From positions 2,680-66,679 of the forward strand of contig JACRGV010000047.1 of the NCBI GenBank assembly GCA_016212215.1: a stretch of 64,000 nt of DNA, written 5' to 3'. The notes beneath the pieces are model-generated. The model was given only the letters and a program-made list of their open reading frames with translations. It ran no database searches and was not told where the DNA came from. This document shows positions 32,292-54,992 of the stretch, piece after piece. A program made the position numbers and the translations under genes. The stretch's first letter is position 1. The number at the start of each line of letters is the position of its first letter. Origin of the DNA: Nitrospirota bacterium. Its GTDB lineage: Bacteria; Nitrospirota; 9FT-COMBO-42-15; HDB-SIOI813.

Positions 32292-32474
32292 AATATTAAC
32301 AGACGATTTCTTATAATTTCATTTATTCTATGCAGCATGAAAATATTGTTATCATCGTCATTCAAAAATCCCTCCGGCGGGGTAAGAAAACCCCGCCTAT
32401 CCGGAGATATATCAAGGATAGGTGGGACATTCTTGTCCCACTCATTTTCACCGCCCTTCGTGAGCGATCTACTC

Positions 32475-34103: not shown

Positions 34104-34221
34104 GAAGCAAGAAGTAAGAAGTTAGAAGTAAGAAGTTAGAAGCAAGAAGCAAGAAGTTAGAAGTAAGAAAAAGGGTGCAATCGAATCCTTGCCCCCTTGA
34201 ACCCTTTATTTAGTAAGGAGT

Positions 34222-37200
34222 ATGACAATGTTACAAAAGCATATTCAACGTATTGTACGCTTTCCGGTTACTATTATTTTACTTACTATTTTTGCGACGT
34301 TGTTTTTTGGGTACCAGTTCAAAAGCCTGTTTATGGTACTGGATCCTAAGGCACTGCTTCCGCAGGAACATCCTTATGTGAAACTTAATAATGAGATAGA
34401 GAAACAATTCGGGGGGAGCCGTGTTGTCTTAATAGGTCTGGCATCAAAGGATGGAGATATATTCAATCCTTCAGACATAGAAAAGATAAGGCGTATAAAT
34501 GAAGAAGTAAAAAAGATACCGGGTATTCTGGAAAATAATGTCGTCAGCATTGCAGACAAAAAGGTGAAGTATGTAAAGGCAGAGGGTAATTCACTTGATA
34601 TAAAGGGTGTACTTGAAGGGATTGAATATACAGATGAAGGGATGAAAGAATTAAAGGAGAGGGTATATTCAAACCCTGCATTTATAAACAGCCTAGTTTC
34701 CGCAGACGGGAAAGTTGCTGCAATTATTCTGGATTTTAAAGGTGGTGCGAGTGACTGGCAGCAGAAGGCAGGGGGGGAGCAGAAAACAGAAGTAAGAAGT
34801 CAGAAGCAAGAAGTCAGCAGTAATCAGTCAGAAGTTAGAAGCAAGAAGCAAGAAGTAAGAAATGATGAGGCTGAAGGCGGAAGGCTGAAGGCTGAAGTAA
34901 GAAATGAGAAGCAAGAGACCAGTTCCACCCATGGGGGAGGGTCTCTATCCTTTTTCCCCTCCCCCTTGACGGGGGAGGGTAAGGGTGGGGGTGGTCTCGT
35001 TGCCTCTGCTTATGCGCAGGAAGATTGGAAGAAATGGCAAAAAGGCGGGGGGGCAGAGCAGAAGCAAGAAGCAGGAAAACAAGAGGCTGAAGGCGGAAGG
35101 CTGAAGGCTGAAGCAGGAAGCAAGAAGCAAGAAGGAGGCAACACTGAAACACCTTCCTCCCCTTCGACAGGGGAAGGCACAACACCACAGACTCCCTCCC
35201 CCTCGACGGGAGAGGGCACAACATCACAAATCCCCTCCCCCTCGACGGGGGAGGGTAAGGGTGGGGGTGAGCAAGGGAAGTGGCCTGCTGGTGGCGGTGA
35301 AGGCGGTTGGGGCGGAGCCGGCGGTGGTGAGGCAAATTGGGAGCAGTGGTATGTAAGTGACTCTACTATTCATAAAAAGATACTTGAGATTGTTGATAAA
35401 TATAAAGACGCAAATACTGATATATATGTTGGCGGTTTGCCGATAGCACTTTCTTTCCTTGAGGCAGATTCATTGAGGATGACGAAGTATGTGTATCCGC
35501 TTGCCCTGATAGTGATAATGATAGTTCTATATTTTGCATTCCAGAGTATACAGGGGATGATCCTGCCGATAGTTTGTGCACTTTTAAGCGTGGTATGGGC
35601 TGTAGGGTTAATGGGTGTATTTAAGATAGCTCTTGATCCATGGAATATGATGACCCCTATCTTAATCCTTGCTGTTGCCGCAGGACATTCTGTGCAGATT
35701 TTGAAAAGATACTATGAGGAACTTGGAAATGCCCCCCTCACCCATCCCTCTCCCCATTGGGGAGAGGGTAAGGGTGAGGGGGAGCGTGGGGGTGAGGATG
35801 ATCGCCACTGGGGCGTTATCGCCTCCCGTAAGGCTGTTGTGGATTCTCTATCTAAGATAGGGCCTGTTATGATAACAGCAGGTCTTGTAGCAGCGGCGAG
35901 CTTTGCGTCACTTGTTACATTTAAGTTAAAGACATTCCAGTCTTTTGGTATATTCACAGCCTTCGGAATCCTGAGTGCACTGATTCTTGAGATGACATTT
36001 ATTCCGGCGGCGAGGTCGTTGATGAAGCCACCTAAAAGACAGTTAGCAGTTAGCAGTAAGCAGTTAGCAGGAACTCCCTCCCCCTTGACGGGGGAGGGTC
36101 GGGGTGGGGGTGGGCTACTCGACCGCTTTATGCTCTCCATTTCACGTCTTGTTACTCATCGAAGCGGGTTTGTATGGGTTGGTCTTTTGGTTGTTATTGC
36201 CTTTTCTGTTTACGGGATTGAACACTTAACTATCATAAATAGCCTGAAAGGGCTTTTCTTTGAATCAACACAATTCAGGAAGGATGATGCGGCATTAAAT
36301 AAGAGCTTCGGGGGAACTGCGACTTTTTATGTTTATTTAGAAGGTGACAAGGAAGACAGTCTGAAAAATCCTGAAGTGCTGCGTGCTATAGAGAGCCTTC
36401 AGAAAGAGATAGAGAGCGTACCTGAGGTCGGTAAGACCCAGTCGTTTGTTGACTATGTTAAATCAATGAATCAGAGTATGCATGGCGGAGACCCTGCATA
36501 TCGTGTTATTCCTGCTGACCAGCAGACAATTTCAGAATATCTCTTTCTGTTTACTATCTCAGGGTCACAGGGAGAGATGGACAGGTTTCTTGATTACCAG
36601 TATCAGAAGAGTGTTATCTGGGTATTTTTAAGGGATGACAGCACGGTGTTAGGGCAGAGGTTGATTGATATAGTTAATAAATATGGGGGGGGAGTAGAAG
36701 CAAGAAGTAAGAAGCAAGAAGTAAGAAAGGATGAGGCTGAAGGTGGAAGGCTGAAGGCTGAAGTCAGAAATGAAAAAGCAGAAGTAAGAAGTAAGACGCA
36801 AGAAACAACGGTTCCCTCCCCCCTTGCGGGGGAGGGTCAGGGTGGGGGGGATCGCTTCCCTCCCGGCATCAAGGTTGGTGTTGCCGGCAGTATCCCTGTT
36901 ATGATGGCGCTCAATCAGACGATGGTGGCAGGTAAGATATGGAATATCCTGCAGATAGCAGGGATTGTGTTTGTTATATCCGCCATTGTTCTCAGGTCTG
37001 TGATTGGGGGTATCCTTGTGCTTCTGCCGCTTGGTGTAGCGGTACTTGTGAACTTTGGGGTACTTGGAATAGCAGGAATAGGGCTTGGTGTGGGTACTGC
37101 GGCCATCTCTGCAATGGCAGTCGGTTTCGGGGCTGATTATTCGATTTATATGGTGTACCGGCTTAGGGAAGAAGCAAGAAGCAAGAAGCAAGAAGAAAAA

Positions 37201-37479
37201 GAAGAGAAGTCAGAAGTAAGAAGTCAGAAGCAAGAAGCAAGAAGTAAGAAAGAAGATATTGATGAGGCAATTAAAAGGACACTCTTAACTGCAGGTAAAG
37301 CTATTGTTTTTGTAGCCGCAGCAATGAGCGTCGGCGGTATTACGCTTCTGTTCACTGGATATTATTTGCACATGGAAGGTTTTTTAGTTCCACTTGCCAT
37401 GTTTACAAGCTCTTTGTCAACATTGATTGTATTACCTGCGGTGGTGGCTTTGGTGAGGCCGAGGTTTATCTATAGGTAA
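34222..37479 (+). CDS. MMPL/RND-superfamily transporter (HpnN-like) carrying five in-frame insertions of repeat elements
   Basis: Two sets of six TM helices plus periplasmic loops (GGLPIALSFLEAD..., AGHSVQILKRYYEE, GFGADYSIYMVYRL). The hydrophobic cores are interrupted by low-complexity segments encoded by heptamer and REP repeats. Confidence 0.75.
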   Translation: MTMLQKHIQRIVRFPVTIILLTIFATLFFGYQFKSLFMVLDPKALLPQEHPYVKLNNEIEKQFGGSRVVLIGLASKDGDIFNPSDIEKIRRINEEVKKIPGILENNVVSIADKKVKYVKAEGNSLDIKGVLEGIEYTDEGMKELKERVYSNPAFINSLVSADGKVAAIILDFKGGASDWQQKAGGEQKTEVRSQKQEVSSNQSEVRSKKQEVRNDEAEGGRLKAEVRNEKQETSSTHGGGSLSFFPSPLTGEGKGGGGLVASAYAQEDWKKWQKGGGAEQKQEAGKQEAEGGRLKAEAGSKKQEGGNTETPSSPSTGEGTTPQTPSPSTGEGTTSQIPSPSTGEGKGGGEQGKWPAGGGEGGWGGAGGGEANWEQWYVSDSTIHKKILEIVDKYKDANTDIYVGGLPIALSFLEADSLRMTKYVYPLALIVIMIVLYFAFQSIQGMILPIVCALLSVVWAVGLMGVFKIALDPWNMMTPILILAVAAGHSVQILKRYYEELGNAPLTHPSPHWGEGKGEGERGGEDDRHWGVIASRKAVVDSLSKIGPVMITAGLVAAASFASLVTFKLKTFQSFGIFTAFGILSALILEMTFIPAARSLMKPPKRQLAVSSKQLAGTPSPLTGEGRGGGGLLDRFMLSISRLVTHRSGFVWVGLLVVIAFSVYGIEHLTIINSLKGLFFESTQFRKDDAALNKSFGGTATFYVYLEGDKEDSLKNPEVLRAIESLQKEIESVPEVGKTQSFVDYVKSMNQSMHGGDPAYRVIPADQQTISEYLFLFTISGSQGEMDRFLDYQYQKSVIWVFLRDDSTVLGQRLIDIVNKYGGGVEARSKKQEVRKDEAEGGRLKAEVRNEKAEVRSKTQETTVPSPLAGEGQGGGDRFPPGIKVGVAGSIPVMMALNQTMVAGKIWNILQIAGIVFVISAIVLRSVIGGILVLLPLGVAVLVNFGVLGIAGIGLGVGTAAISAMAVGFGADYSIYMVYRLREEARSKKQEEKEEKSEVRSQKQEARSKKEDIDEAIKRTLLTAGKAIVFVAAAMSVGGITLLFTGYYLHMEGFLVPLAMFTSSLSTLIVLPAVVALVRPRFIYR

Positions 37480-37616: not shown

Positions 37617-37982
37617 ATGGCGATACGGAGTTATAGGGATTTAAATGTATACTCACTTTCATATAGCCTCGCTATGGAGGTATTTCATATAACATTACGT
37701 TTTCCAAAAGAGGAAATGTATTCCTTGAGCAGCCAGATTAGGAACTCCTCAAGGTCGATACCTGCAAATATTGCTGAAGGGTGGGCAAAGCGAATATACG
37801 AGAATATTTTCAAACGGCACCTTGTTGATGCAATAGGCTCAACATGCGAAACTATAGTATGGTTAGATTTTGCATTAGACTGTAAGTATATTGACAACAA
37901 TAATCATTTGAAATTATCTGAAAATTATAAAGAAGTTGGAAAAATGTTAAATGGCCTACTTGAAAACTGGCAAACCTATTAA
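37617..37982 (+). CDS. Four-helix-bundle protein (23S rRNA intervening-sequence protein family)
   Basis: 121 aa. YRDLNVYSLSYSLAMEVFHIT...PANIAEGW matches the family signature (dL.VyQ.a..l...i......P.NIAEG). Confidence 0.7.
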   Translation: MAIRSYRDLNVYSLSYSLAMEVFHITLRFPKEEMYSLSSQIRNSSRSIPANIAEGWAKRIYENIFKRHLVDAIGSTCETIVWLDFALDCKYIDNNNHLKLSENYKEVGKMLNGLLENWQTY

Positions 37983-39033
37983 GTCGAAATCCTTTCTTGC
38001 TTCTATCTTCTTGCGTCTTGTTTCCCGTTTCTTACTTCTTACTTCTTACTTCTTACTTCTTACTTCTATTTTAGCTCCCCGCCCTGCCTACGCTGCCCTT
38101 CAGCCCAGCCTTTCTATTGTAACAGGTTATTATATGCCGAGGCTTGATGAGTTGAACTATATTTTAAAATATAGAGAGGTTGAGCTTGGCCCCCGTAATA
38201 CAGAAGCAAAACCCTCACCATATCCTGTCATATATCAGGGCTATAGCCCTGAAGGTATGCCTAAGATGAGTCCTAAGTCCCCAAAGTTCGGACTCCAATT
38301 TCAGGTTGATATTAATCCCAGGTATTCTGTGTTTATTGGAAATAGTGTTGCTACTTATGATTCCGAGAAAAGAGACGTGAGGTCATTCTTTGTGGGTTTT
38401 TCAATACCTTCTGACCGTGTAACAAGGTTTTCCCTTTCATTGAATCAACTATGGATAGGGGTTAAGAGGAACTGGATATTTGAGGAAAAGGGGAAGCCAG
38501 AAGAAAGAAGCAAGAGGCAAGAAGCAAGAAGTAAGAAGGAAGAAGACGGAAGCAAGAAGCAAGAAGCAAGAAGTCAGAAACAAGAAGAAAGTCAGAAGCA
38601 AGAAGATAGAAGTAAGAAGGCAGAAGAGAAGCCTGCCTCAAAGCTTTATGTGGAGATGGGGGTGCTTGCTGTAACAAGGGCATATCTTACTACAGACGTG
38701 TGGTTGCATGTTTACGCCCCTGAGGAGGGTTTTGATTTCTATAAGGTTACGGAAACTCTGTCACAGGGATACGGATATGCAACCTTCATAGGTATAGGCG
38801 GGGAATACTTCATAAAGAAATGGATGTCATTAGGCTTGGATGCGGATTATACTATAGGCGGTGTCTCAAAGATAAAATATGCCAGGTACTTTACAGTAGA
38901 CCCTCTGGAGAAAGATATTATTAAACCAGGGGATAAGGTTACATATACAGATCTAAAGGTTGGCCGCGTTGCCCCATTGTTTATAAACTTAGAGGGAGTG
39001 GATATAAAGGGGCAGGTAAGGTTTTATTTTTAG
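37951..39033 (+). CDS. Outer-membrane beta-barrel protein with an in-frame repeat insertion. The likely start is the TTG near 37996, giving signal peptide (M)RLVSRFLLLTSYFLLLTSILAPRPAYA.
   Basis: Ends ..GQVRFYF (C-terminal aromatic). The central KPEERSKRQEARSKKEEDGSKKQEARSQKQEESQKQEDRSKK is encoded by heptamer repeats. The signal peptide is encoded by the reverse complement of the same repeat. Confidence 0.5.
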   Translation: MAYLKTGKPIKSKSFLASIFLRLVSRFLLLTSYFLLLTSILAPRPAYAALQPSLSIVTGYYMPRLDELNYILKYREVELGPRNTEAKPSPYPVIYQGYSPEGMPKMSPKSPKFGLQFQVDINPRYSVFIGNSVATYDSEKRDVRSFFVGFSIPSDRVTRFSLSLNQLWIGVKRNWIFEEKGKPEERSKRQEARSKKEEDGSKKQEARSQKQEESQKQEDRSKKAEEKPASKLYVEMGVLAVTRAYLTTDVWLHVYAPEEGFDFYKVTETLSQGYGYATFIGIGGEYFIKKWMSLGLDADYTIGGVSKIKYARYFTVDPLEKDIIKPGDKVTYTDLKVGRVAPLFINLEGVDIKGQVRFYF

Positions 39034-39496: not shown

Positions 39497-40774
39497 ATGA
39501 AAAAAATAACAATTAAGACAAAAGGAGAAAAAATGAGAAAATTTATACTTCCTCTATTAGTAGCAGGGGCTGTTGCATTTACAGCAGCTCAGGCAATGGC
39601 AACAAGCGCTACCAGAACTGCATCCTTTGAAGAAAATCATGCATATCAAAATAGCTATGTTGGTGGTACTGTAACAACTATTGAAAACACAACTACACCT
39701 GGTAACCACTACAAGAAAACTGATATGTTAGAACAAGGCAGACATGGCGGCGGCAGTGGTGGATATCAGATTAGTTCTTCTATTCTGAAGAGCGTTGCAA
39801 TGGATTCAATTCCTGGTTGGGAGGCAGCCGACGGTTCAGTTGGTTATACAACCAATGCAAATCCATTTCAGGCAGGTTTAGTAGGTATTACTGATTATCC
39901 GTTGATGGCTCCTCGTTATACACAGCCATGTCCGGATTGGTTTGGTCCTAAAGGAACATGTCCGGCAAACGCTTATGCAGTTGATCCTCAGACTGAACCA
40001 GGTTCAGGTAATGACGCAATTGCATGGGATGGTATTGTGTTAGATGACCTATACCAGGCAGTCGGTGCTGATGACAGCAAGACGGATACAGTTTCAGGCG
40101 GTTCAATAGCAAACAGGACATTCGATCAGTGGTTAGATCAGCTCTTCTTAAACGGAAATGCACAGGGACATAACATGACTGTTATGGCCGGTACAACTGA
40201 TGTTACCACATACGGACGTCATTTTAACATCGCTGATACATTAGACCAGGATATCGCTGATTGGTCTACCTCATATCATGGAACAGTAGGTCAGTCAGCT
40301 AAGGACGAGACTACAGGTATCTATGGTAAGTTGACCATGATATTCCAGTTGGCAGGTAGAGTTACCGGTACACAAGCTTGCGCCAGCGGTGCAGGATTTA
40401 CCGAAGGTGGTGCACACAGACCAGGTGGAAACGTTCAGTGTGACTATGCACAGGCTGATGACACTTTAACCGGTGCACATCTTGGTGAAGGTGTAGGTTC
40501 ATTTGCAGCTCGGGCTGATGGAATGACTGCATGGAAACTTGATCAGTGGGTAGTATCAGATGTATGGGATTGGGTACACAAGGCAGATGGTGCTTTAGTT
40601 GCTGACCCTCATGCAGTTGATAAGAATGGCGGCGAAGGCGTAGCTCAGGGATACAGCTCATGGTTCAATGATGGAGCAGGTCAGAAGTTTGACTACATCT
40701 ACAACTATGATGGTTCCCATGGTACGATTGACAAGACCTTTACAAAAGGTGATCACACCCATCCGGATCCATAA
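39497..40774 (+). CDS. Hypothetical secreted protein
   Basis: Signal peptide MRKFILPLLVAGAVAFTAAQAMA (an alternative start is the ATG at 39533). Gly/Thr/Asp-rich. Strong SD AGGAGGT upstream and a terminator downstream. Confidence 0.4.
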   Translation: MKKITIKTKGEKMRKFILPLLVAGAVAFTAAQAMATSATRTASFEENHAYQNSYVGGTVTTIENTTTPGNHYKKTDMLEQGRHGGGSGGYQISSSILKSVAMDSIPGWEAADGSVGYTTNANPFQAGLVGITDYPLMAPRYTQPCPDWFGPKGTCPANAYAVDPQTEPGSGNDAIAWDGIVLDDLYQAVGADDSKTDTVSGGSIANRTFDQWLDQLFLNGNAQGHNMTVMAGTTDVTTYGRHFNIADTLDQDIADWSTSYHGTVGQSAKDETTGIYGKLTMIFQLAGRVTGTQACASGAGFTEGGAHRPGGNVQCDYAQADDTLTGAHLGEGVGSFAARADGMTAWKLDQWVVSDVWDWVHKADGALVADPHAVDKNGGEGVAQGYSSWFNDGAGQKFDYIYNYDGSHGTIDKTFTKGDHTHPDP

Positions 40775-40811: not shown

Positions 40812-40841
40812 AAGGCCCTTGGAAACAAGGGCCTTTTTTTT
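40812..40841 (+). terminator. Rho-independent terminator
   Basis: aaggccctt-ggaaac-aagggcctt hairpin followed by TTTTTTTT. Confidence 0.75.
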
Positions 40842-40921
40842 GAGTAAGACAAGGTGAGAAGTAAGAAGTTAGAAGCAAGAAGGAAGAAGCAAGAAAGGAG
40901 GTAGAGACAATGAGATAAACT

Positions 40922-43900
40922 TTGACTGGAAAGGTTATTTCCGATATATTCAACGTCTTTATGATATTCTTAAAAATTAGAAATAGCTTTATTCGTGTTC
41001 TGATTCTTGCCTTTTTTTCTCTTACTTCTTACTTCTTGCTTCTTACTTCTTGCTTCTTATCTCTGTCCGGCAATAACTACGCCTATGCAGAGGAGGCACA
41101 GCCCACTGTCTCTTCTCCGCTTGAAAGGGGCATCCGGCTTCTGAATGAAAAGAAACCTGATGAGGCATTAAAGGCCTTTGAAGAGGCTTCATCCGTAAAT
41201 CCGACGGACCCCTTACCCTTTTACTATTCAGGTGTTGCGTATCATATTAAACGGCAGTTCGCCCCGGCCCTTAATGCATTAAACAAGGCATTAAATCTTC
41301 AGCCTAACATGCCGCCTGCCCTGCTCAGGATAGGTATGCTGTTTGAAGACGTGGGGAGGATTAACAATGCAAGGGAAGTTTATACCGACCTTATTGAAAC
41401 AGGTGTAGAAAATGAGTATGTTAAAGAGGCAAGGGAAAGGCTGAACAGGATTACATCAAAGGAACATTTCAAGAAGGCATCCCAGCTTTTTATCGGAAAA
41501 CAATATGAAGAGGCGCTTAAGGAACTGGATATAGTCTTATCCCTTACGCCTGAAGATGCTGAGGCACTTTTTTCTTCCGGAATGGTCTCTGTATTTTTAA
41601 AAAAACCTAAAGAGGCTGTGTATTTCTTTAAGAAGGCTTTAGAAAATAATCCAAACCATGTTAATGCACGTTTACAACTTGCGATTGTGTATGAGTCTCA
41701 GGGTGACTATGAAAATGCAATAAAGACTTTTAAAGAGCTTATTTCGTTCTCACCTAATTCTACTCAGGCAAAGGAGGCTGAGAAAAGGCTCGCAGAAGAT
41801 GAAAAACGATTTAAGGCCCGCGGCCATTTTGAGGCGACGGCAGAATTGATACGCAAAGAACTCTGGACAGAGGCCCTCGCTGAGGCAAAGAAGGTGTTGG
41901 AGGCAGAGCCTGATAATCCGGATGCACATTTCAATCTTGGTTTAATCCATTATAAACTTAAACAGAATGACCAGGCTATCGAGGCATTAAAACATGCGAT
42001 TGATGCTGACCCAAAACTTCAAAAGGCATACTACCAGCTTGGGGTTGTATATGATGATATGGCGAAATATAAGGAAGCGGTTGAGGAGTATGAAAAGACT
42101 ATTGCTATAGATGAAAAGGCAGAAGAGGCTACTAAGGCAAGGGAGCGTATTGAACTCATTAATTCTGTGAATGTAGAGGAGGAGGTAGCCAACGAGGTTA
42201 AGGAGCTTCTTAAAAACAAAGATGTTGACAGTGCCATAAAAGAGATAGAAGGTTTTTTAATGAGGAAGAAGGGGGATACAAAACTCCTGATGACCCTCGC
42301 TGCTTTATATCAGCGTGCAAATCGTTATCAGGATGTTGCCTCTACCCTGGAAAAACTGTTGAGTTTATCTCCAAAGGATATAAAGGCTCGTTTCTTCCTT
42401 GCAAATACTTATGAATTGATGAGGGAGTATGAAAAGGCATTAGATCAATACCGCATATTGGCAGATCAGGATAAAGAGACACCAAAGGGAAAAAAGGCAG
42501 AGGAGAAGGTGCAGAGATTAACATTACAGGTACATTATGACCGTGGTAAAAAGTATCTTCTATCAGGGAATTATGAGGCATCCCTGATAGAAATGAAGGC
42601 AGTCCTTGATGTTTCTCCTGATGAGCCGCTTGCACTTTTCAATATGGGTGTTCTTTATGACCGTCTAAATAGTCCTGACGAGGCAGTGTCATCTCTAAAA
42701 AAGGCAGTTACCATTGTTCCTGATTATACAATAGCCTACTTTCAACTTGGATTAGTTTATGAAAAGATGAGGAAGTTTGATGAGGCAAGAGATGCATTAC
42801 GTAAAGTCATAGAGATTGACAAAGAGGGTAAAGAGGCAAAGATAGCACAGGATAGGATCAATTCTCTGAAGGAAAACGAGGAATTAACCTTACGCCTAAA
42901 GGAAGCAATAGGTTTTATGGAAAAAAGGGAATGGGATAATGCGAGGAAGTCTATTGAGTCTCTATTAGTCACTCATCCATCCAACTATATGGGATATTAT
43001 TATCTCGGTATTATTCTGAATAGGTCAGGGATTATAGATGAGGCTAAGGCGGCTTTTAAGAAGGTTATCGCTATTAATCCAAAATTTGCGGCGATATATC
43101 TTCAACTTGGGGATATGTTGATGCAGGAGGGCGAATATGAAGAGGCAAGAAACAACTATGAGCAGGCGATCCTAATTAATAAAGATTCTCCGGAGGCGGC
43201 AACAGCCGGGGAACGACTTAAAAATCTGAAGGCATGGTGGGGTAGTTTTTCTATGAGTCACAGCTACAATTCAAACATAGCCTTCCGCTCTAAGGCACAG
43301 TCAAGTGCAAACTCCAATTATAACCTTGGGTTGAGCTATACAATGCTTCGCCGAAAAAATTGGAATATATCTACTGTACTATCCGGTAGTGAAGCCATTT
43401 ATTATGAAAGCCAATTTAAGGGGAATTCATACTCCGCTGCCTTAAACGGAACCCGTAATTTTCTGGATAAATATACCTTATCAGGCTCCGGAACATATAG
43501 CGCATCCTTTTTTGAAGGGAAACCGACTGTTGTCTCGACTCATTTCTCTGGAAATGCAGGGACAAATCCGGGAGGAATACCATCGTCAGCTACCCTTGCA
43601 TATTCTTTTTCCAACACAAGGTCTTTTGTAAATAAATTAAGTAATGCAAACCAACATAATCTGAATCTGTCACTCTCACAAAAAATGTCTGCACGGGATT
43701 CATTAACCGGTAGTTATGGATTCAGCATATATCAAAATCTTGATCCCATAGGCAGTAATTATGCAAACAGGACGCATGCTGTTTCTTTAAGTTACGGCCA
43801 CCACTTTTTTTCTTTTTTAAACCTGAGCCTCAGCTACTCAAGAAGCTTTATAAACTACAGTAACCCGGATTCAACAACACTTTTTCAGAGATACCGCAGT

Positions 43901-44131
43901 AATGTAAGTGAGGGAATGAATGGGGGGCTTAGCGTCTCTTTTTCAGAAGATGTTTCATTGTCTTTCAGCTATACTTTTTCCTATGCAATAAATCGTACAA
44001 ACCTTGCGCCGTTAACGGCGGAAGAACAGCAACAACTGAAGGACCTCCTGTCTACCCCACTTCCAACAGTCGGCGGCGGGGGAGGATATACTGCACACAA
44101 TGCAGGTTTATCATTAAGCGTTCGCTTTTAG
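40922..44131 (+). CDS. Outer-membrane protein with a periplasmic TPR-repeat domain and a C-terminal beta-barrel (PgaA/BcsC-like architecture)
   Basis: At least 14 TPR units across residues 60-780. The C-terminal roughly 290 aa is Ser/Tyr/Asn-rich with alternating strands and ends ..LSLSVRF. The signal peptide FFSLTSYFLLLTSCFLSLSGNNYAYA is encoded by reverse-complement heptamer repeats. Confidence 0.65.
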   Translation: MTGKVISDIFNVFMIFLKIRNSFIRVLILAFFSLTSYFLLLTSCFLSLSGNNYAYAEEAQPTVSSPLERGIRLLNEKKPDEALKAFEEASSVNPTDPLPFYYSGVAYHIKRQFAPALNALNKALNLQPNMPPALLRIGMLFEDVGRINNAREVYTDLIETGVENEYVKEARERLNRITSKEHFKKASQLFIGKQYEEALKELDIVLSLTPEDAEALFSSGMVSVFLKKPKEAVYFFKKALENNPNHVNARLQLAIVYESQGDYENAIKTFKELISFSPNSTQAKEAEKRLAEDEKRFKARGHFEATAELIRKELWTEALAEAKKVLEAEPDNPDAHFNLGLIHYKLKQNDQAIEALKHAIDADPKLQKAYYQLGVVYDDMAKYKEAVEEYEKTIAIDEKAEEATKARERIELINSVNVEEEVANEVKELLKNKDVDSAIKEIEGFLMRKKGDTKLLMTLAALYQRANRYQDVASTLEKLLSLSPKDIKARFFLANTYELMREYEKALDQYRILADQDKETPKGKKAEEKVQRLTLQVHYDRGKKYLLSGNYEASLIEMKAVLDVSPDEPLALFNMGVLYDRLNSPDEAVSSLKKAVTIVPDYTIAYFQLGLVYEKMRKFDEARDALRKVIEIDKEGKEAKIAQDRINSLKENEELTLRLKEAIGFMEKREWDNARKSIESLLVTHPSNYMGYYYLGIILNRSGIIDEAKAAFKKVIAINPKFAAIYLQLGDMLMQEGEYEEARNNYEQAILINKDSPEAATAGERLKNLKAWWGSFSMSHSYNSNIAFRSKAQSSANSNYNLGLSYTMLRRKNWNISTVLSGSEAIYYESQFKGNSYSAALNGTRNFLDKYTLSGSGTYSASFFEGKPTVVSTHFSGNAGTNPGGIPSSATLAYSFSNTRSFVNKLSNANQHNLNLSLSQKMSARDSLTGSYGFSIYQNLDPIGSNYANRTHAVSLSYGHHFFSFLNLSLSYSRSFINYSNPDSTTLFQRYRSNVSEGMNGGLSVSFSEDVSLSFSYTFSYAINRTNLAPLTAEEQQQLKDLLSTPLPTVGGGGGYTAHNAGLSLSVRF

Positions 44132-44855
44132 CGTTCATCCGAAAATCCCTTCCGGCGGGGTAAGAAAACCCCGCCTACCCATATCTATGAGGATAGGCGG
44201 GATATTCTTGTCCCGTTGATTTTCATGGCCCTTTGTGAGCGCCCCGCTCATGAGGGTTCATCCGAAAATAACCCCCCCATGCCCCCCCTTGAACAAAGGG
44301 GGGGATTGCCGTTGGCCATTGAGCACCAAAGGAACTTTCCCCCCCCTTAACAAGGGGGGGCTTGGGGGGGTGGTTTTCATCCTCCTTTGTGAAACCTCCG
44401 TTTCATGACAGTTCACCCGAAAATCTCCGCTAATTGCCCGTCATGGTTCGACAGGCTCACCATGACACCTTGGCTGTCATTCTGAGAAATGTAGCGTCGG
44501 GGTTTATCCCCGACGTCTAAAGCTCATCTACCGTAGACCTCCAAGTTAGCCTTCTGAGACGTTGGGGATAAACCCCAACGCTACGAAAACCATTGTACAG
44601 AATTTTCATCCCCCTTTGTGAGCGCCCCGCTCATGAGGGTTCATCCGAAAATCAACCCCATCCCCACCCTACCCCTCCCCTTGAAGGGGCGGGAATCAAC
44701 ATAGCCCCCTCTCCCTCAGGGAGAGCTGCAATTAAATTCCTTCCAAATCCCTCCCCCCTCTTTTGCGGGGGGAGGCAGGAGGGGGGATCAGGGTGAGGGT
44801 GGGGTTTTCATTGCCCTTTGTGGTCGCCCCTCATGACGGTTCTATGGCATAGTTA
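44132..44855. repeat. Large intergenic block of REP modules, including the inverted copy of the roughly 250-bp composite element and a distinct 160-nt nested-hairpin element
   Basis: gggacaag modules (44150..44230), polyC/polyG palindromes (44270..44390), a nested hairpin (44440..44600), and the inverted composite copy (44625..44855). Confidence 0.85.
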
Positions 44856-47117
44856 TTGCAAGAATGCAATAACAAAGTGAGTAGAAATAAATTACCTAAT
44901 ACCTTATCACATCCATATATAGCCTTTATCCTTTTTGCATCAATTGGTACCTTGATATATTTGAATTCCCTTAATAATCCATTTCAATTTGATGATTTTA
45001 ATGTAGTAGTTAATAATTTCAAGATACAAGAAATAAAGAATATACCCTACTTTTTTATTAATCCAAGATTCGGAGCCAACAATCCAATGGCCGCCGGACA
45101 CTACAGGCCTATTTTATTTACAAGTTATGCAATCAATTATGCTATAGGCGGGTTGAATACCCTTGGCTATCATATAGTTAATCTGGCTTTTCACATTGGG
45201 ACAGCGTTTTTAGTTTTCCTCATAGTGAAGGGAATGTTGGAAGACAGTAAGCAGGTAGCAGTAAGCAGTGAGCAGATAGCAGAAAACAAACAGAAGTTAG
45301 AAGCAAGAAGTCAGACGACAGCAGACATCCAGCGGGACAAGAATGTCCCGCCTATAGATAGTCGGGGTTTTCTAACGCCTACGTTTGTAGATAGTCGGGG
45401 TTTTCTAACCCCGATGTTTGTTGCCTCAGTGGCTTCTGGTCTTATTTTCCTTGTCCATCCATTTAATTCAGAGGCTGTAAATTATATAACAGCCCGTTCG
45501 AGTATAATGAGCGGGTTCTTCTATTTGTTGGGGTTTTATTGCTGGGTGCTTTTTAGAAGTCAGAAGAAAGAAGCAAGAAGCAAGAAGTTAGAAGCAAGAA
45601 GTAAGATTTCAGAAGAAAGAAGTCAGAAACAAGAAGTTAGAAGTCAACAGGCAGAAGAAAGAAGTAAGAAGGCAGAAGTAAGAAGTAAGATAGGGGAAGA
45701 CCGGCAAGGTTTTTCTAACTTCTTACCTCTTACCTCTTACTTCTATCTTTTTTCCCTCCTCGCCTTTATCGCCGGTATGTTAAGTAAAGAAGTGGTGATA
45801 ACTTTGCCGGTAATGTTGTGGTTGTATGATTTGTATGGGTTTAGCAGAAGCAAGAAGTTAGAAGCAAGAAGTAAGAATCAAGAAGATAACACAGTAATAA
45901 ATAAGTATGCAGTATTTGATTTGCGTACCTATATCCCCTATCTCCCTTTTGTTCTTCTTGTAGCGATACCGTATCTGCTAGTACGTCTCTTTTCACTCGG
46001 CAGGGTGCTTGATAAGTTTCAGAGGGGTTTTATTACACAACTGTTCACAGAGTTGCCTGTTCTTGTGAGACATTGGCAGATGTTTTTTATCCCAAAGGGC
46101 TTTAGCCTGGTTCACGATGTGGATGTATTCCATGGCATGACATGGTTGTTTATGGTTTCAGTTGTAATATTGATATTATATCTGTGTGGTATTGTGTATC
46201 TATTTTTGTATGGAAAAGGCCGTTGGCGTATTATATCTTTTTTTATGCTGTGGTTTTTTATTGTACTGCTTCCAACAACAATTATTCCACTTAATGCAAT
46301 CTTTCAGGAAAACCGGGGTTACATGGCCTTGTTAAGTTTTGCAGTACCGGCAGGGATTGCAATTGAGACTTTGTTTAATTATAAAAAAAGTGTAGTATTG
46401 AAGGTTATCGTGCTGTTATTATTATTGGCGGTTTATGGAAGTATTACGATGCAGAGAAACATTGTATGGGGGGATGATATTAAGTTATGGAAGGACGCAT
46501 TAGAGAAGTCTCCGCAATCCGGGATTTCCTTTGCAGGATTATCTCTTGCCTATAAGAACAGTGGTGATACATTTCTCTCAATTGAAACTGCGAAAAAGGG
46601 AATTTCTGTAGAACCTGATAGCTATTATCTCCATATGCTTATAGGAGCAGATTTTCAGGCACTTGGTCAAATGGATGAGGCCGCTAAAGAATATGAAAAT
46701 GCGCTTAATATAGATGCAGGTTTCGGTAATGTATGGAATGACCTTGCAGTTTTGTATATAGAAAAAAACAACCTTGAACGTGCGGAGCAGTGCTTAAAAA
46801 ATGGGATAAAGGTTTGGAAGGATTTGCCTCCTCTTTACTATAATCTGGGCAGGATAGATATAATGCGCGGAGATTTTGTTAATGCTATTAGCCACTATGA
46901 AACAGCAGTAAAATTGTATCCGGATTACCTTACTGTGAGGTATGACATGGGAGAGGCTTATGAAAAACTTAATAAGATAGATCAGGCAAAGGAACAGTAC
47001 AGAGAGATTATTAAATATAAAACAATTAATCTTAAAAATTTGAATTACAGGTATGGGTTAGATGAAAAAATAGCAGGGGAAATTATAGCAAAGGCGGAGC
47101 AGAAGTTTAATCAGTAA
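44856..47117 (+). CDS. GT-C-fold glycosyltransferase (PMT_2/DUF1736, TMTC-like) with C-terminal TPR repeats; paralog 1 of 4
   Basis: About 11 TM helices. First-loop NPFQFDDFNVV acidic motif and HYRPIL motif. C-terminal TPR units. In-frame heptamer and REP insertions. Confidence 0.7.
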   Translation: MQECNNKVSRNKLPNTLSHPYIAFILFASIGTLIYLNSLNNPFQFDDFNVVVNNFKIQEIKNIPYFFINPRFGANNPMAAGHYRPILFTSYAINYAIGGLNTLGYHIVNLAFHIGTAFLVFLIVKGMLEDSKQVAVSSEQIAENKQKLEARSQTTADIQRDKNVPPIDSRGFLTPTFVDSRGFLTPMFVASVASGLIFLVHPFNSEAVNYITARSSIMSGFFYLLGFYCWVLFRSQKKEARSKKLEARSKISEERSQKQEVRSQQAEERSKKAEVRSKIGEDRQGFSNFLPLTSYFYLFSLLAFIAGMLSKEVVITLPVMLWLYDLYGFSRSKKLEARSKNQEDNTVINKYAVFDLRTYIPYLPFVLLVAIPYLLVRLFSLGRVLDKFQRGFITQLFTELPVLVRHWQMFFIPKGFSLVHDVDVFHGMTWLFMVSVVILILYLCGIVYLFLYGKGRWRIISFFMLWFFIVLLPTTIIPLNAIFQENRGYMALLSFAVPAGIAIETLFNYKKSVVLKVIVLLLLLAVYGSITMQRNIVWGDDIKLWKDALEKSPQSGISFAGLSLAYKNSGDTFLSIETAKKGISVEPDSYYLHMLIGADFQALGQMDEAAKEYENALNIDAGFGNVWNDLAVLYIEKNNLERAEQCLKNGIKVWKDLPPLYYNLGRIDIMRGDFVNAISHYETAVKLYPDYLTVRYDMGEAYEKLNKIDQAKEQYREIIKYKTINLKNLNYRYGLDEKIAGEIIAKAEQKFNQ

Positions 47118-47127
47118 GTTTTAATGT

Positions 47128-49353
47128 ATGAAAGAAGATATGTTCGGGTTCAGAAAAGGGTGTCACCGGTATCTCATAGTCTTTTGTATCTTTTTATTTG
47201 CAGGTCTGCTCATCTATTGGAATTGCTTAAGTAATCCTTTCCAGTATGATGATGACGGCGTGGTTGTTAAGAATACTAATATTAAAGATGTTAAAAATAT
47301 CCCGCTTTTTTTTATAAACCCAAGACTGTCTGAAAGTAATCCTCTGTATGCAGGACATTACAGACCTATTGTTTATGCAAGTTATGCGGTTAATTATGCT
47401 ATCGGGGGATTAAACCCATTCGGGTATCATGTTGTTAATCTGGCGATTCATATTGGTTCTGCGTTTTTGATATTTCTTATAATGAAGGCAATGTTAGAAG
47501 ACAGGAAGCAGTCAGCAGTAAGCAGTGAGCAGATAGCAGAAAACAAACAGAAGTTAGAAGCAAGAAGTCAGACGACAGCAGACATCCAGCGGGACAAGAA
47601 TGTCCCGCCTATAGATAGTCGGGGTTTTCTAACGCCTACGTTTGTAGATAGCCGGGGTTTTCTAACCCCGATGTTTGTTGCCTCAGTGGCTTCTGGTCTT
47701 ATCTTCCTTGTCCATCCATTTAATTCTGAGGCTGTAAATTATATAACAGCCCGTTCGAGTATAATGAGCGGGTTCTTCTATTTGCTGGGGTTTTATTGCT
47801 GGGTGCTTTTTAGAAGTCAGAAGCAAGAAGTAAGAAGTAAGATAGGAGAAGACCATCGTGGTTCTTCTAATTATTTAAATCTAACTTCTAACTTCTTACC
47901 TCTTGCATCTTACCCCTTACCTCTTACCTCTTACTTCTATCTTTTTTCCCTCCTCGCCTTTATCGCCGGTATGTTAAGTAAAGAAGTGGTGATAACTTTG
48001 CCGGTAATGTTGTGGCTGTATGATTTGTATGGGTTTAAGTCAGTAAGCAGTAAACAGTTAGCAGTAAGCAGTAAACAGACAGAAGGAAGTAACACACAAT
48101 GCCCCTCCGAATCTGCTCACCGCTCACTGCTTACTGCTGACTATCTTTTAAACTGGCGTAACTATGTTCTATATCTCCCTTTTGTTCTTCTTGTAGCAAT
48201 ACCGTATCTGCTTATGCGTCTCTTTTCCCTTGGGAAGGTGCTGGACAAGTTTCAAAGGGACATAGTAACTCAAATACTTACTGAGGTACCGGTTTTATTT
48301 AAACACTGGCAGATGTTTTTTATCCCAAAGGGTTTTAGTCTGGTACATGATGTGGACATTTTTCATGGTATGACGTTGTTGTTGATGGTTTCAATCGTAT
48401 TATTTATTTTGTACTTGGTAATTACTCTATATCTTTTTTTGTCCGGTAGTAGATACCTGCGGGTTGTATCTTTCAGTATGATGTGGTTCTTAATTGTACT
48501 CCTTCCAACAACGATTATGCCTTTAAATGCGATCTTTCAGGAAAACCGGGGATACCTTGCAGTTGTATCATTCTCTTTATTAATCGGGGTTGTACTAATG
48601 GAACTCGGTAAGAGGGTCAACAGGACAACAGTTATAAGCATTACTGTTATTTTGTTTATTATCTACGGAGTAATTACAGTCAAAAGGAATTTTGTATGGG
48701 GAGACAGTATCAGGCTTTGGAAGGATGCGGTAGAGATTGCGCCAGGTTCCGGAATAGCATACGCCGGTTTATCTGCAGTATATAGAGAGAGGGGAGACAT
48801 GTTTCTTTCAATTGAAACAGCAAAAAGGGGGCTTAATGCGGAACCGGACAATTACTATTTACACCTTAATCTCGGGCGTGACTACTTTCTTTCAGGAGAT
48901 GTTGACAAGTCCATACAGGAATATGAAAATGCTTTAAGAATTGATCCTAATGATGCGGTTTCAATGAATGAGCTTGCAACACTTTACGTTAAAAAAGGAG
49001 ATATTGAACAAACTGAGATATTCTTGAAGAAGGCAGTCCGGAAATGGTATAGTCTGCCCCCTCTTCACTACAATTTGGGCGTGGTGCTTGTAGGACGTGG
49101 AAAATTATCAGAGGCCGTGACGGAGTTTCAGGAGGCTATTGCCATTTATCCGGCATATCTTCGTGCAAGGTATGAATTAGGTGAAGTCTATGAAAAAACC
49201 GGCAGGTTAGACATGGCAAGAGAACAGTACAATGAAATTATCAGGTATGGCTCACCTGATACCGCTACTGTAGAACTGTTGTATGACCAGGATAAAAGAA
49301 TCGTGGATCGGATTGTAAGTATGGCCAGGCAAAAACTCGGGAATAAACAATGA
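47128..49353 (+). CDS. GT-C-fold glycosyltransferase (TMTC-like) with C-terminal TPR repeats; paralog 2
   Basis: Same architecture as paralog 1 (NPFQYDDDGVVV, HYRPIV). A block of about 330 nt is near-identical to paralog 1. Confidence 0.7.
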   Translation: MKEDMFGFRKGCHRYLIVFCIFLFAGLLIYWNCLSNPFQYDDDGVVVKNTNIKDVKNIPLFFINPRLSESNPLYAGHYRPIVYASYAVNYAIGGLNPFGYHVVNLAIHIGSAFLIFLIMKAMLEDRKQSAVSSEQIAENKQKLEARSQTTADIQRDKNVPPIDSRGFLTPTFVDSRGFLTPMFVASVASGLIFLVHPFNSEAVNYITARSSIMSGFFYLLGFYCWVLFRSQKQEVRSKIGEDHRGSSNYLNLTSNFLPLASYPLPLTSYFYLFSLLAFIAGMLSKEVVITLPVMLWLYDLYGFKSVSSKQLAVSSKQTEGSNTQCPSESAHRSLLTADYLLNWRNYVLYLPFVLLVAIPYLLMRLFSLGKVLDKFQRDIVTQILTEVPVLFKHWQMFFIPKGFSLVHDVDIFHGMTLLLMVSIVLFILYLVITLYLFLSGSRYLRVVSFSMMWFLIVLLPTTIMPLNAIFQENRGYLAVVSFSLLIGVVLMELGKRVNRTTVISITVILFIIYGVITVKRNFVWGDSIRLWKDAVEIAPGSGIAYAGLSAVYRERGDMFLSIETAKRGLNAEPDNYYLHLNLGRDYFLSGDVDKSIQEYENALRIDPNDAVSMNELATLYVKKGDIEQTEIFLKKAVRKWYSLPPLHYNLGVVLVGRGKLSEAVTEFQEAIAIYPAYLRARYELGEVYEKTGRLDMAREQYNEIIRYGSPDTATVELLYDQDKRIVDRIVSMARQKLGNKQ

Positions 49354-49886
49354 AGTTTGAAATATAATCAGAAAGAGATTGGTAGTTATGAACCGTCATG
49401 AGCCTTCGGCTCACAAATGTTGATGAAAATGAGGCCCCCCCACCCGGCCCCCCTCCTGCCTCTCCCCCCGTAAAGGAGGGGGGAGGATTTGGTAGAAATT
49501 TAATTGTAACTCTCCCGCCGGGGGAGAGGGAGGCTGACGTTTATTCCTCTCCCTTGACGGGAGGGGGTTAGGGGGAGGGTGAGCTATGGAGATTTTCGGA
49601 TGAACCCTCATGAGCCTTCGGCTCACAAAGGTACATGAAAATGAGGCTCAGGATGAAACAACCCCACCCTCACCCGGACCCTCTCCCTGAGGGAGAGGGT
49701 GCTTAGTTTTTATCCCCTCCTCTTCAAGGGGAGGGTTAGGGTGGGGATGGGGTTGATTTTCGGATGAACTCCCATGAACCGAGGGTTCACAAAGGGCCAT
49801 GAAAATCAGCGGGACAAGAAAGTCCCGCCTATCCTTATAGAAATGGATAGGCGGGGTTTTCTTACCCCGCCGGAAGGGATTTTCGG
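49354..49886. repeat. Large intergenic REP block between glycosyltransferase paralogs 2 and 3
   Basis: Diverged copy of the composite element (tcatgagccttcggctcacaaa x2, ctccccccgtaaaggaggggggag, ctctcccgccgggggagag, cctctcccttgacgggaggggg) plus ccctccccttcaaggggagggttagggtggggatgggg and gggacaagaaagtcccgcc..ggcggggttttcttaccccgcc. Confidence 0.85.
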
Positions 49887-51947
49887 ATGAAAGATTGGTT
49901 GGATAAGCGATATGTAATTTTTATTATCTTCTTGCTCATAGGGATTCTGACGTATTGGAATAGCTTTGGTAATAGTTTTCATTATGATGATGAAATGGTC
50001 ATTGTTTATAATAGGAATGTCACCTCTCTAAAAAATATCCCGTATTTCTTTATAAATCCTAAGATGATGTTTTCGGATCTGATGCCGGGTGGGCATTATC
50101 GTCCTCTTGTGCTTACTTCTTATGCTGTCAGCTATGCGTTCACTCAATTAAATCCTGTAGCCTATCATCTATTCAACTTTTTCTTCCACGTGGGGTCGGC
50201 GTTTTTGATATTTCTTATAGTGAAGGCTATGTTAGGCAGCATTCAGCAGTCAGATGACGCCCATCGGGACAAGAATGTCCCGCCTATAGATAGCCGGGTT
50301 TTTCTAACGCCTACGTTTGTAGATAGCCGGGGTTTTCTAACCCCGATGTTTGTTGCCTCAATGGCTTCCGGTCTGATTTTTCTTGTCCATCCGTTTAACT
50401 CAGAGGCTGTGAACTATGTTACTGCCCTCTCCAGCGTAATGAGCGGGTTCTTTTACCTTCTGGCATTTTATTGCTGGGTGCTTTTTAGAAGTCAGAAGCA
50501 AGAAGTAAGAAGTAAGATAGGGGAAGACCGGCAAGGTTTTTCTAACTTCTTACCTCTTGCTTCTTGCTTCTATATAGCTTCCCTCCTCGCCTTTATCGCA
50601 GGTATGTTAAGCAAAGAGGTAGTGATTACACTTATAGTCGTGTTATGGCTGTATGATATGTATGGGTTTAGGTCAGTAAGCAGTAAGCAGTCAGCAGTTA
50701 GCAATGAACAGTTAGCTGATAAAACTGCTTACCGCTCACCGCTTACTGCTGACTATCTTTTAAACTGGCGAACTTATATCCCATATATTCCTTTTGTCCT
50801 TCTCGTAGCGGTGCCTTATTTATTAATAAGATTATTTTCACTTGGGAAGGTGCTTGACCATTTTCAGAGGGATATATGGACTCAGTTGTTTACAGAGCTT
50901 CCGGTTCTGGTCAAACACTGGCAGATGTTTTTTATACCTGTTGACCTCACTCCCCTTCATTTAGTGGAAATATACAGGACTTATTGGTCTTTCCCTGTAT
51001 TATTATCCACGGTCATTATCACAGCATATTTAATTATCGCATTTATTCTTTCACGGGTTCAGAGGCGGACTTTACGCATTATCTCCTTTTTTATGTTCTG
51101 GTTTTTTATAGTTCTCTTACCCACAACTATAATCCCTTTAAATGATATTTTTCAGGAAAACCGCGGTTACCTTGCAATGGTAAGTTTTGCAGTCCTCGCC
51201 GGTGTAGTAATAGGCGAGTTGGGGAGGATAAAGATTAAATGGGTTTCAATGGCAGTTCTGGTCGGTTTAATTATTTTTTACGCCGGCTGTACAGTACAAA
51301 GGAATAAGGTTTGGAAAAGTGAGATGGCCCTCTGGACCGATGCATTGAAGAAGTCTCCAAGGTCTCCGGCAGTTTACACAGCATTAGCTGTTGAATACAA
51401 AAGGGCAAGAAAGTTTAACATGGCTATAGATGCATCAAATAAGGCTATTTTACTGGGGGGCAATGATAATTTCTTTATCCATGACAATCTTGGGAGAATC
51501 TATTCTATGCAGGAAAAGTATGACCTTGCTATAAAGGAGTTTGAACAGGCAGTAAAACTGTATCCCTATAAATCGGATACTCATAATGAATTAGGTCATG
51601 CCTATTTTATAATGGGCAAAATAGAGTTAGCGGAAAAGGAGCTTAAGGAGGCTATTAAGTACGATCCAAAATTCTCCAGACCTTATTATAATCTAGGGAT
51701 CTTGAGCAGGCGGGGTGGAAAATCTTCTGAGGCTATAAATTATTTTAAGACTGTAATTTCATTAAATCCGGCACATTCGAAATCGTGGTTTAATTTAGGG
51801 TCATTGATGGAAGAAATGGGCAACAAGGATGAGGCATTAAGATATTACAACAGGGCAGTTCAGGTAACTGCAAAGGATGAACAAGACGTAGCCCAGGAGG
51901 CACGTGAGGCTATTGACAGGCTTGAGAAGATGAGGGCAGCAAGATAA
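49887..51947 (+). CDS. GT-C-fold glycosyltransferase (TMTC-like) with C-terminal TPR repeats; paralog 3
   Basis: NSFHYDDEMVIV, HYRPLV; TM domain followed by TPR repeats. The same REP-derived RDKNVPPIDSR..FLTP loop is present. Confidence 0.7.
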   Translation: MKDWLDKRYVIFIIFLLIGILTYWNSFGNSFHYDDEMVIVYNRNVTSLKNIPYFFINPKMMFSDLMPGGHYRPLVLTSYAVSYAFTQLNPVAYHLFNFFFHVGSAFLIFLIVKAMLGSIQQSDDAHRDKNVPPIDSRVFLTPTFVDSRGFLTPMFVASMASGLIFLVHPFNSEAVNYVTALSSVMSGFFYLLAFYCWVLFRSQKQEVRSKIGEDRQGFSNFLPLASCFYIASLLAFIAGMLSKEVVITLIVVLWLYDMYGFRSVSSKQSAVSNEQLADKTAYRSPLTADYLLNWRTYIPYIPFVLLVAVPYLLIRLFSLGKVLDHFQRDIWTQLFTELPVLVKHWQMFFIPVDLTPLHLVEIYRTYWSFPVLLSTVIITAYLIIAFILSRVQRRTLRIISFFMFWFFIVLLPTTIIPLNDIFQENRGYLAMVSFAVLAGVVIGELGRIKIKWVSMAVLVGLIIFYAGCTVQRNKVWKSEMALWTDALKKSPRSPAVYTALAVEYKRARKFNMAIDASNKAILLGGNDNFFIHDNLGRIYSMQEKYDLAIKEFEQAVKLYPYKSDTHNELGHAYFIMGKIELAEKELKEAIKYDPKFSRPYYNLGILSRRGGKSSEAINYFKTVISLNPAHSKSWFNLGSLMEEMGNKDEALRYYNRAVQVTAKDEQDVAQEAREAIDRLEKMRAAR

Positions 51948-52069
51948 TGAAACATCCATGAGCGTACCGCTCACAAAGGATGATGATAATGACGGGACAA
52001 GAATGTCCCGCCTATCCTCGTAGAAATGGATAGGCGGGGTTTTCTTACCCTGCCGGAAGGGATTTTCGG
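51948..52069. repeat. REP modules between paralogs 3 and 4
   Basis: catgagcgtaccgctcacaaagg and gggacaagaatgtcccgcctatcctcgtagaaatggataggcggggttttcttaccctgcc. Confidence 0.8.
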
Positions 52070-54957: not shown

Positions 54958-54992
54958 TAATATGGCATGTAAATTGCTATATTAACTATATA

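Follow-up and report, generated by a model that had tools for sequence, protein, structure and literature searches.

The subject of this analysis is a gene for a secreted tetratricopeptide repeat (TPR) protein with a C-terminal outer-membrane beta-barrel, hereafter the TPR-barrel protein, which lies in a 64-kb stretch of DNA, hereafter the window, from a Nitrospirota metagenome-assembled genome (MAG; GCA_016212215.1, contig JACRGV010000047.1, positions 2,680 to 66,679). Across distant bacterial lineages, this gene is the last one of an operon that further encodes an RND-type (resistance-nodulation-division) transporter, LolA-like proteins, an outer-membrane protein of the DUF1302 family and a protein that we call u360. 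The conserved operon points to an as yet undescribed multi-protein export gate, and we lean, with slightly better than even confidence, towards the reading that the TPR-barrel protein would form the outer-membrane part, with its TPRs as scaffold, of a route by which an RND pump exports an amphiphilic component of the envelope, its partnership with the other proteins being deduced from gene order and gene fusions. The linkage of the operon genes is much firmer than the mechanism.

Conserved partners of the TPR-barrel gene

Related loci were gathered with the subgroup alignments A3 and A4 of the barrel family, which has a close tier of proteins of ~1040-1090 aa from metagenomes and Nitrospirota MAGs and a distant tier of proteins of ~880-910 aa. 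Upstream DNA was at hand for eight distant-tier loci from several lineages (L005, L016, L017, L018, L020, L021, L022 and L026). In all eight, a u360-like gene (~310 aa) stands immediately 5' of the barrel gene, and it is preceded in turn by a gene for DUF1302 and/or an MMPL/HAE3-type RND protein, again in eight out of eight cases. A LolA-like gene is present in half of them (L016, L020, L021 and L022), and the order in L021 (LolA, LolA, DUF1302, MMPL, u360-like, TPR-barrel) is the same as in the window. Since L016 belongs to a Chromatiales MAG, the module is not confined to the Nitrospirota. Downstream of the barrel gene, nothing related or conserved was found in the three distant-tier loci that were listed (L018, L020 and L021), where the genes mostly lie on the opposite strand. 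The closest Nitrospirota loci, L011 and L015, have the order of the window (DUF1302/MMPL, IVP, u360, u425 and TPR-barrel), with partners that are 52-80% identical.

The same parts also occur within one protein. P0022 (1529 aa) and P0085 (1532 aa) are fusions that unite the barrel in a single chain with a stretch resembling u360 (E 3e-13) and with DUF1302, the latter matching the DUF1302 protein of the window at E 5e-93; in P0022 the barrel domain covers residues 452-712 (E 3.8e-15), and TPR matches are on record for the gene product. These fusions indicate which parts cooperate, and because of the synteny across lineages together with such natural gene fusions, we regard the upstream genes as conserved functional partners of the TPR-barrel gene. 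An earlier note on this DNA had proposed to examine how well the gene neighbourhood is conserved. This comparison brought out the upstream genes, which that note had overlooked, and the RND/LolA-like/DUF1302 operon lends support to its guess that a different export system might be involved.

The u360-like proteins carry signal peptides and, in all cases except one, end in an aromatic residue as outer-membrane proteins do. As the jackhmmer search with u360 drifted into TPR matches, the C-terminal matches and the results of the first-pass phmmer search were kept. Neither the u360 profile nor u425 matched a PDB sequence. The features of the operon, the TPR-barrel gene and its surroundings are compiled in Table 1.

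Table 1. Position of the TPR-barrel gene, its parts and its neighbours in the window.
Feature	Position	Strand	Remarks
LolA_like/DUF1329 periplasmic carrier-like protein	31485..32291	+	PF17131 178.7 bits, PF07044 57.9 bits
DUF1302 outer-membrane protein	32337..34103	+	PF06980 49.3 bits (cut-off 23.2)
MMPL-type RND transporter	34222..37479	+	MMPL 119.6 bits; closest NCBIfam family HAE3
IVP gene (23S-rRNA-IVP / bAvd-like four-helix bundle)	37617-37982		between RND gene and u360
u360, outer-membrane-protein-like	37951..39033	+	signal peptide; C-terminal ...VRFYF
u425, secreted, G/A/T/D-rich	39497..40774	+	no family; between u360 and barrel gene, in Nitrospirota loci only
Terminator-like hairpin with T-tract, strong	40812..40835	+	between u425 and TPR-barrel gene
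TPR-barrel gene	40922..44131	+	signal peptide, ~15 TPRs and predicted 14-stranded barrel
Sec signal peptide, signal peptidase I type	40961..41089	+	ends ...NNYAYA↓EEAQ; AxA↓Q/E site in orthologues
Periplasmic TPR array	41144..43183	+	residues 75-754; 15 TPR-like units in six blocks
C-terminal outer-membrane beta-barrel, predicted 14-stranded	43235..44128	+	residues 772-1069 (298 aa); CymA/OmpG-like fold
YSNPDSTTLF, most conserved motif of the family	43856..43885	+	loop between strands 11 and 12
Helix-containing loop NLxPLTAEEQQxLxDLLxxPxPTVGG	44000..44083	+	strands 13-14; helix at domain residues 262-271
Terminator-like hairpin, weaker	44196..44217	+	3' of TPR-barrel gene
mT1-4, four paralogous polytopic-membrane proteins with C-terminal TPRs	44856..54196	+	YDD conserved after transmembrane helix 1
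Small TPR protein, 1761-aa secreted giant protein, 744-aa He_PIG/fn3 protein and 260-aa protein (C-terminal transmembrane helix and basic tail)	54217..63308	+	

Architecture of the TPR-barrel protein

Counted from the TTG codon at 40922, the open reading frame (ORF) of the TPR-barrel gene comprises 1069 aa, while the corresponding NCBI record (MBI5192674.1, from a 78.8-kb contig of a Nitrospirota MAG and named "tetratricopeptide repeat protein") starts at the ATG codon at 40961 and has 1056 aa. Since the orthologues keep a signal peptidase I site of the type AxA↓Q/E and have no conserved cysteine, the protein is exported via Sec and is not a lipoprotein. The region around the start (40896-40963) holds a strong Shine-Dalgarno sequence, AAAGGAGGT, at 40896, followed by a mini-ORF of two codons (ATG AGA TAA, 40910). 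The TTG codon at 40922 itself falls on a promoter-like TTGACT-17-TATATT, and the peptide 'SDI.N.FM' ahead of the ATG codon at 40961 is kept in L011 and P0005, which leaves the start site ambiguous.

The general architecture given by the earlier note, i.e. a signal peptide, a long TPR array and a C-terminal transmembrane beta-barrel, held up in the Pfam and TPR counts and in the AlphaFold2 model of the barrel, with slightly shifted figures: its estimate of ~14 TPRs over ~700 aa and a C-terminal domain of ~290 aa becomes 15 units over ~680 residues and a domain of 298 aa. Pfam TPR_2 matches the protein with E=2.4e-73 in 11 stretches, and a sixteenth, very weak TPR match within the barrel was discounted. 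The best PDB matches of the TPR region are consensus TPRs and OGT, and PgaA, BcsC, PelB and AlgK are not among them. An identity as a PrsT/PEP-CTERM protein was rejected, as the matches to TIGR02917 were below the cut-off and limited to the TPRs.

For the C-terminal domain, AlphaFold2 returned a model with 14 strands from a 21-sequence alignment (pLDDT 85.1, pTM 0.76), and a second run with a shallower alignment gave 14 strands, too. The modelling thus confirmed a closed 14-stranded barrel, where the earlier note had named fold prediction as the test of whether this domain is a transmembrane barrel at all. In the Foldseek ranking of the model, CymA and OmpG came out on top, while PelB (rank 17), PgaA (rank 22) and also BcsC were placed lower. 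CymA and OmpG are monomeric, 14-stranded oligosaccharide porins. As they have no TPR domain, a different genomic context and 6-12% sequence identity to the barrel, the likeness is one of fold only. Searched on its own, the barrel had no match in Pfam, even at E<=10, or in NCBIfam, and the barrel-family profile found nothing meaningful among the PDB chains (best match BamA, E 0.009).

Conservation within the family is highest in two barrel loops, namely in YSNPDSTTLF and in the ...PIPTVGG stretch that follows the helix of the loop joining strands 13 and 14 in the model. If the TPR array is periplasmic, both loops would be extracellular. They are candidates for a constriction or plug, and the barrel, being of the size of CymA, is predicted to be big enough for a channel. 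In P0003 and P0007/P0100 (L001 10001-13282), among them the L001 paralogue beside the module of giant proteins, the C-terminus extends ~45 residues further past PIPRVGG; there is therefore space for two additional strands, and these proteins may represent a 16-stranded variant.

An exhaustive search of 1.84 billion representative sequences with a hidden Markov model (HMM) yielded 93 proteins at E<=1e-3, of which 14 reached E<=1e-30. Some members are 1300-2900 aa long, with longer N-terminal regions that contain many TPR-like matches in a local iterated search. Among ten relatives whose clusters were looked up, "tetratricopeptide repeat protein" was the sole name on record, and the barrel family defined here is invisible to Pfam and NCBIfam. 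We define it by a 14-strand barrel with a Y-x-NPDS motif, encoded at the end of a DUF1302/u360-like operon with or without LolA-like and RND genes, and the protein of the window shows these features. One MAG (GCA_016234155.1) carries two paralogues, one adjoining u360 (L012) and the other (L004) placed beside the giant-protein module, where PMT_2 and GT2 genes occur as well. The exact sequence of the TPR-barrel protein belongs to a 90%-identity cluster that is represented by a 55-aa 'general stress protein YciG', which is why a first, word-indexed homologue search returned three relatives and missed the protein itself.

A putative RND-driven export route

The AmeABCD-type HAE3 cassette resembles the operon of the window in that it combines a DUF1302 outer-membrane protein, a DUF1329/LolA-like protein and an HAE3-like RND protein in one cluster (PMC6394551; 10.1101/072470). 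AmeABCD affects the tolerance to hydrophobic monoterpenes (PMC6394551), DUF1302, DUF1329 and RND genes are co-fit and have been proposed to export a cell-wall component (10.1101/072470), and DUF1302 is predicted to bind DUF1329 and to form a barrel of 18 strands similar to AlgE (PMC13499233). Whereas the AmeABCD-type cassette has a COG4447 propeller, the operon of the window instead ends with a u360-like outer-membrane protein and the TPR-barrel protein, and no COG4447/BNR (Ycf48-like) domain was detected in the window ORFs that were scanned. Neither of these two proteins is mentioned in the publications on AmeABCD-type cassettes that were consulted, and within the literature collection searched, DUF1302 and 'tetratricopeptide' do not occur together in any paper.

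Put together, these parts suggest a route in which the MMPL/HAE3-type RND pump would take an amphiphilic or hydrophobic envelope component, such as a lipid, a glycolipid or a lipid-linked polymer, from the inner membrane, and LolA-like carriers would bring it across the periplasm. The TPR superhelix would extend into the periplasm and dock the carrier, the cargo or the pump, while the gate in the outer membrane, where the cargo is released or becomes inserted, would be built from the 14-stranded barrel and the DUF1302 and u360 proteins. In this process, the two conserved barrel loops (YSNPDSTTLF and the helix loop) could serve as a constriction or gate. In the Nitrospirota, the surface-protein module of membrane-TPR paralogues and giant secreted proteins may share the gate or need its product.

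Several observations weigh against such a role. In the window, a strong terminator-like hairpin parts u425 from the TPR-barrel gene, and the IVP gene and u425 interrupt the operon. The RND protein reaches 174 bits against HAE3 and hence stays below the cut-off of 352. The Nitrospirota paralogues in L001 and L004 have no DUF1302 or u360 gene within 10 kb upstream and adjoin the giant-protein module. It is equally conceivable that the 14-stranded barrel is a passive channel or does no more than anchor the TPR arm in the membrane. Lastly, we know of no substrate for any DUF1302/LolA-like/HAE3 system, and it is for this reason that the mechanism had to be deduced from its parts.

Clusters of DUF1302, DUF1329 and RND genes are widespread, Pseudomonas and other proteobacteria being among their carriers, and have pleiotropic fitness phenotypes. 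With the u360-like and TPR-barrel proteins, one branch of these systems gains two outer-membrane parts that had gone unrecognised, and the vague idea that a cell-wall component is exported becomes a model open to testing, in which several barrels make up a gate and a long TPR arm extends into the periplasm. One could go as far as to imagine, although we find this doubtful, that the TPR-barrel, u360-like and DUF1302 proteins form an unrecognised multi-barrel outer-membrane complex, which together with the MMPL/HAE3 pump and LolA-like carriers would, as a self-contained pathway, deliver a lipid, glycolipid or lipid-anchored polymer across the envelope to the surface in several lineages, and which in the Nitrospirota would be coupled to a layer of giant, possibly glycosylated surface proteins. 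If true, such a pathway would be a functional analogue of Lpt/Lol made of unrelated parts.

Alternative readings of the TPR-barrel protein

The earlier note had likened the protein to the exopolysaccharide (EPS) export porins PgaA and BcsC, and beyond the general architecture this kinship did not stand. The PgaA model TIGR03939 scores 60.9 bits (cut-off 366.65) and covers TPRs only (residues 185-294 of the protein, 401-510 of the profile); the BcsC model NF008520 scores 38.3 bits (cut-off 858), likewise in the TPR region only. As that note had stated, no pga/bcs-type synthase or deacetylase is nearby, and the scanned ORFs of the 64-kb window contain no GT-2 (glycosyltransferase family 2) synthase, deacetylase, glycoside hydrolase or c-di-GMP receptor. 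Membership in the EPS porin family was rejected because of these low, TPR-only scores and the lack of a synthase or deacetylase in the scanned window ORFs. One would otherwise have to assume that the protein is a synthase-dependent porin like PgaA, BcsC, PelB or AlgK-AlgE and that the synthase gene lies at another site, and this we consider highly improbable: the barrel has 14 strands in the model, in contrast to the 16 reported for PgaA-type barrels (PMC8406197), and its family profile matches none of the PgaA, BcsC, PelB and AlgE chains in the PDB. Furthermore, PgaA, BcsC and PelB have a glycosyltransferase synthase as inner-membrane partner, whereas the TPR-barrel protein is accompanied by an RND pump, two further outer-membrane proteins and LolA-like carriers. 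No such synthase, deacetylase, glycoside hydrolase or c-di-GMP receptor was noticed among the identified genes of the related loci, in which the RND pump is the invariant inner-membrane partner. What remains is a functional analogy, in that a TPR arm may guide cargo to a barrel. The AlgK-AlgE pair for alginate export, a TPR lipoprotein and an 18-stranded barrel, is echoed by the TPR array and the AlgE-like DUF1302 barrel in the single chain of P0022/P0085, but these fusions hold an additional 14-stranded barrel and a u360-like module in between, there is no alginate-type synthase, and the TPR-barrel protein is not a lipoprotein. A "TPR plus barrel" architecture can thus not automatically be read as an EPS porin.

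Another likeness exists to the Slam proteins of the type XI secretion system (TXISS; DUF560, PF04575; Neisseria Slam1, Xenorhabdus NilB/HrpB), which share periplasmic TPRs and a 14-stranded barrel with the TPR-barrel protein (PMC8406197). A translocon of this kind, which we regard as unlikely, would bring u425, the 1761-aa giant protein and the He_PIG protein onto the outer membrane or through it, perhaps once the membrane-TPR paralogues had glycosylated this cargo in the periplasm. TPR_Slam matches the protein with 66.8 bits (cut-off 35.2), but it is one among 45 cross-matching TPR families. Of 21 family barrels, 5 are matched by SlipAM (PF04575), with a best E of 1.2e-5; two of the matches examined are co-linear, and the best individual match seen, partial and co-linear, has 22.4 bits (cut-off 22). 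However, these matches are at or below the threshold and stand beside equally weak ones to generic barrel families, and the barrel of the window has no SlipAM match even at E<=10. The tight synteny with the giant, He_PIG and 260-aa (u260) proteins in L001, L004, L007, L015 and the window (40-52% identity) would fit a cargo relationship, as would the gene for a 1363-aa FG-GAP/TSP_3 secreted protein that directly follows the P0022 gene. LolA-like carriers, moreover, are known to serve Slam-type systems as well. Yet the adjacent secreted u425 and giant proteins belong to Nitrospirota loci, and in the downstream regions listed for the distant tier (L018, L020 and L021) the barrel gene is not succeeded by anything cargo-like. 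The signal peptide of the giant protein is an ordinary one without lipobox, there is no adjacent lipoprotein cargo, and the type II secretion system (T2SS) in the window could export these secreted proteins. The TPR arm of ~680 aa is also about five times as long as that of Slam/NilB (~140 aa; PMC8406197), and the RND/DUF1302 operon sets the TPR-barrel protein further apart. Of a different nature is the idea of an assembly or tethering factor, in which the TPR arm, like BamD, BepA or LapB, would act in the periplasm as a chaperone or scaffold that helps to fold or organise the barrels of DUF1302 and u360, or would tether the outer membrane, the small barrel being a membrane anchor only and no conduit. 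TPR arrays are generic protein-interaction scaffolds, in keeping with the consensus TPRs and OGT as best PDB matches, the weak NCBIfam TPR matches include BepA, BamD and LapB, and the barrel gene always stands beside two other outer-membrane protein genes and is even fused to them. We nevertheless deem such a factor quite improbable. The residues that are most conserved in the family sit in the barrel loops and not in the TPR arm, which argues for a specific function of the barrel, and the predicted CymA-like size would suffice for a channel.

Downstream module and other features of the window

In L001, L004, L007, L013 and L015, the barrel gene stands in synteny with the genes for mT1-4 and for the small TPR, giant, He_PIG/fn3 and 260-aa proteins (30-52% identity), and this synteny was seen in Nitrospirota loci only. 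The earlier note had called mT1-4 TMTC-like GT-C proteins. Their link to the barrel gene is genuine within this phylum, whereas the label itself found no support in Pfam, NCBIfam or the PDB. The membrane domain matched nothing in Pfam at E<=0.1, had no NCBIfam support and, as an 11-sequence profile, matched nothing in the PDB at E<=1, and in none of the 120 listed mT homologues does the membrane part carry a Pfam domain. What remains for a putative GT-C identity are the YDD after the first transmembrane helix and a HPFNSE..Y.TARS block, which resemble TMTC motifs. In three of the four paralogues, a 33-bp hairpin unit (TAGATAGCCGGGGTTTTCTAACCCCGACGTTTG) is tandemly duplicated at the same position (45355-45421, 47612-47678 and 50287-50353), encoding DSRGFLTPTFV twice in mT1; a separate 39-bp hairpin repeat lies within the MMPL gene (35156-35255).

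The secreted giant protein (54993-60278) contains 21% Ser+Thr and duplicated internal modules of ~170 aa. It shares a C-terminal domain with the He_PIG/fn3 protein (60290-62524), as seen in a BLAST match of its residues 1362-1748 to the He_PIG homologue in L004, and both C-termini carry a [FQ/FE]PWxxYW[IV]xV motif; the two proteins are 40-52% conserved in L001, L004 and L015. Besides a signal peptide, the 260-aa protein (62526-63308) has at its C-terminus 'GLGCG...' followed by a transmembrane helix and an RLKRLTRVR tail, which resembles a sorting signal of the GlyGly-CTERM/MYXO-CTERM kind. A gene for a rhomboid-family protease (21254-21919) is located beside the T2SS cluster, as in rhombosortase systems. 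This cluster (3921-18825, minus strand) is near-complete and comprises GspC, the secretin GspD, the ATPase GspE, GspF, pseudopilins, GspK, a PilM-like protein and GspM. Between it and the export operon (22887-29768), genes for MoaA, MoaC, a MoaD/E fusion, an FmdE-like protein, an ABC-2 transporter and a histidine phosphatase are found, which are unrelated to the TPR-barrel protein. A multihaem cytochrome-like gene (Paired_CXXCH, 63463-64000) lies 3' of the 260-aa protein gene and shares 69% identity with its positional counterpart in L001. In the operon itself, the IVP gene overlaps the start of u360 by 32 nt and keeps its position in L011 and L015.

Throughout the window, a heptanucleotide tandem repeat, (AGAAGTA/AGAAGCA)n, is spread, with 145 matches to a 19-mer (<=2 mismatches) where 0.01 are expected. 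It is found between genes and, in frame, within MMPL, u360 and mT1-4 (e.g., 34103-34169, 37489-37603, 38493-38627, 40857-40895, 41018-41064, 45555-45690 and 52700-52772), and the MMPL/RND gene is enlarged by such in-frame insertions. Read in reverse orientation, it provides the signal peptides of u360 and of the TPR-barrel protein with their hydrophobic core, 'LLLTSYFLLLTS', in the latter as (AGAAGYA)n at 41018-41064, and a peptide of this kind is also present in orthologues from other Nitrospirota MAGs. The heptamer resembles the STRR (short tandemly repeated repetitive) heptamer repeats of cyanobacteria.

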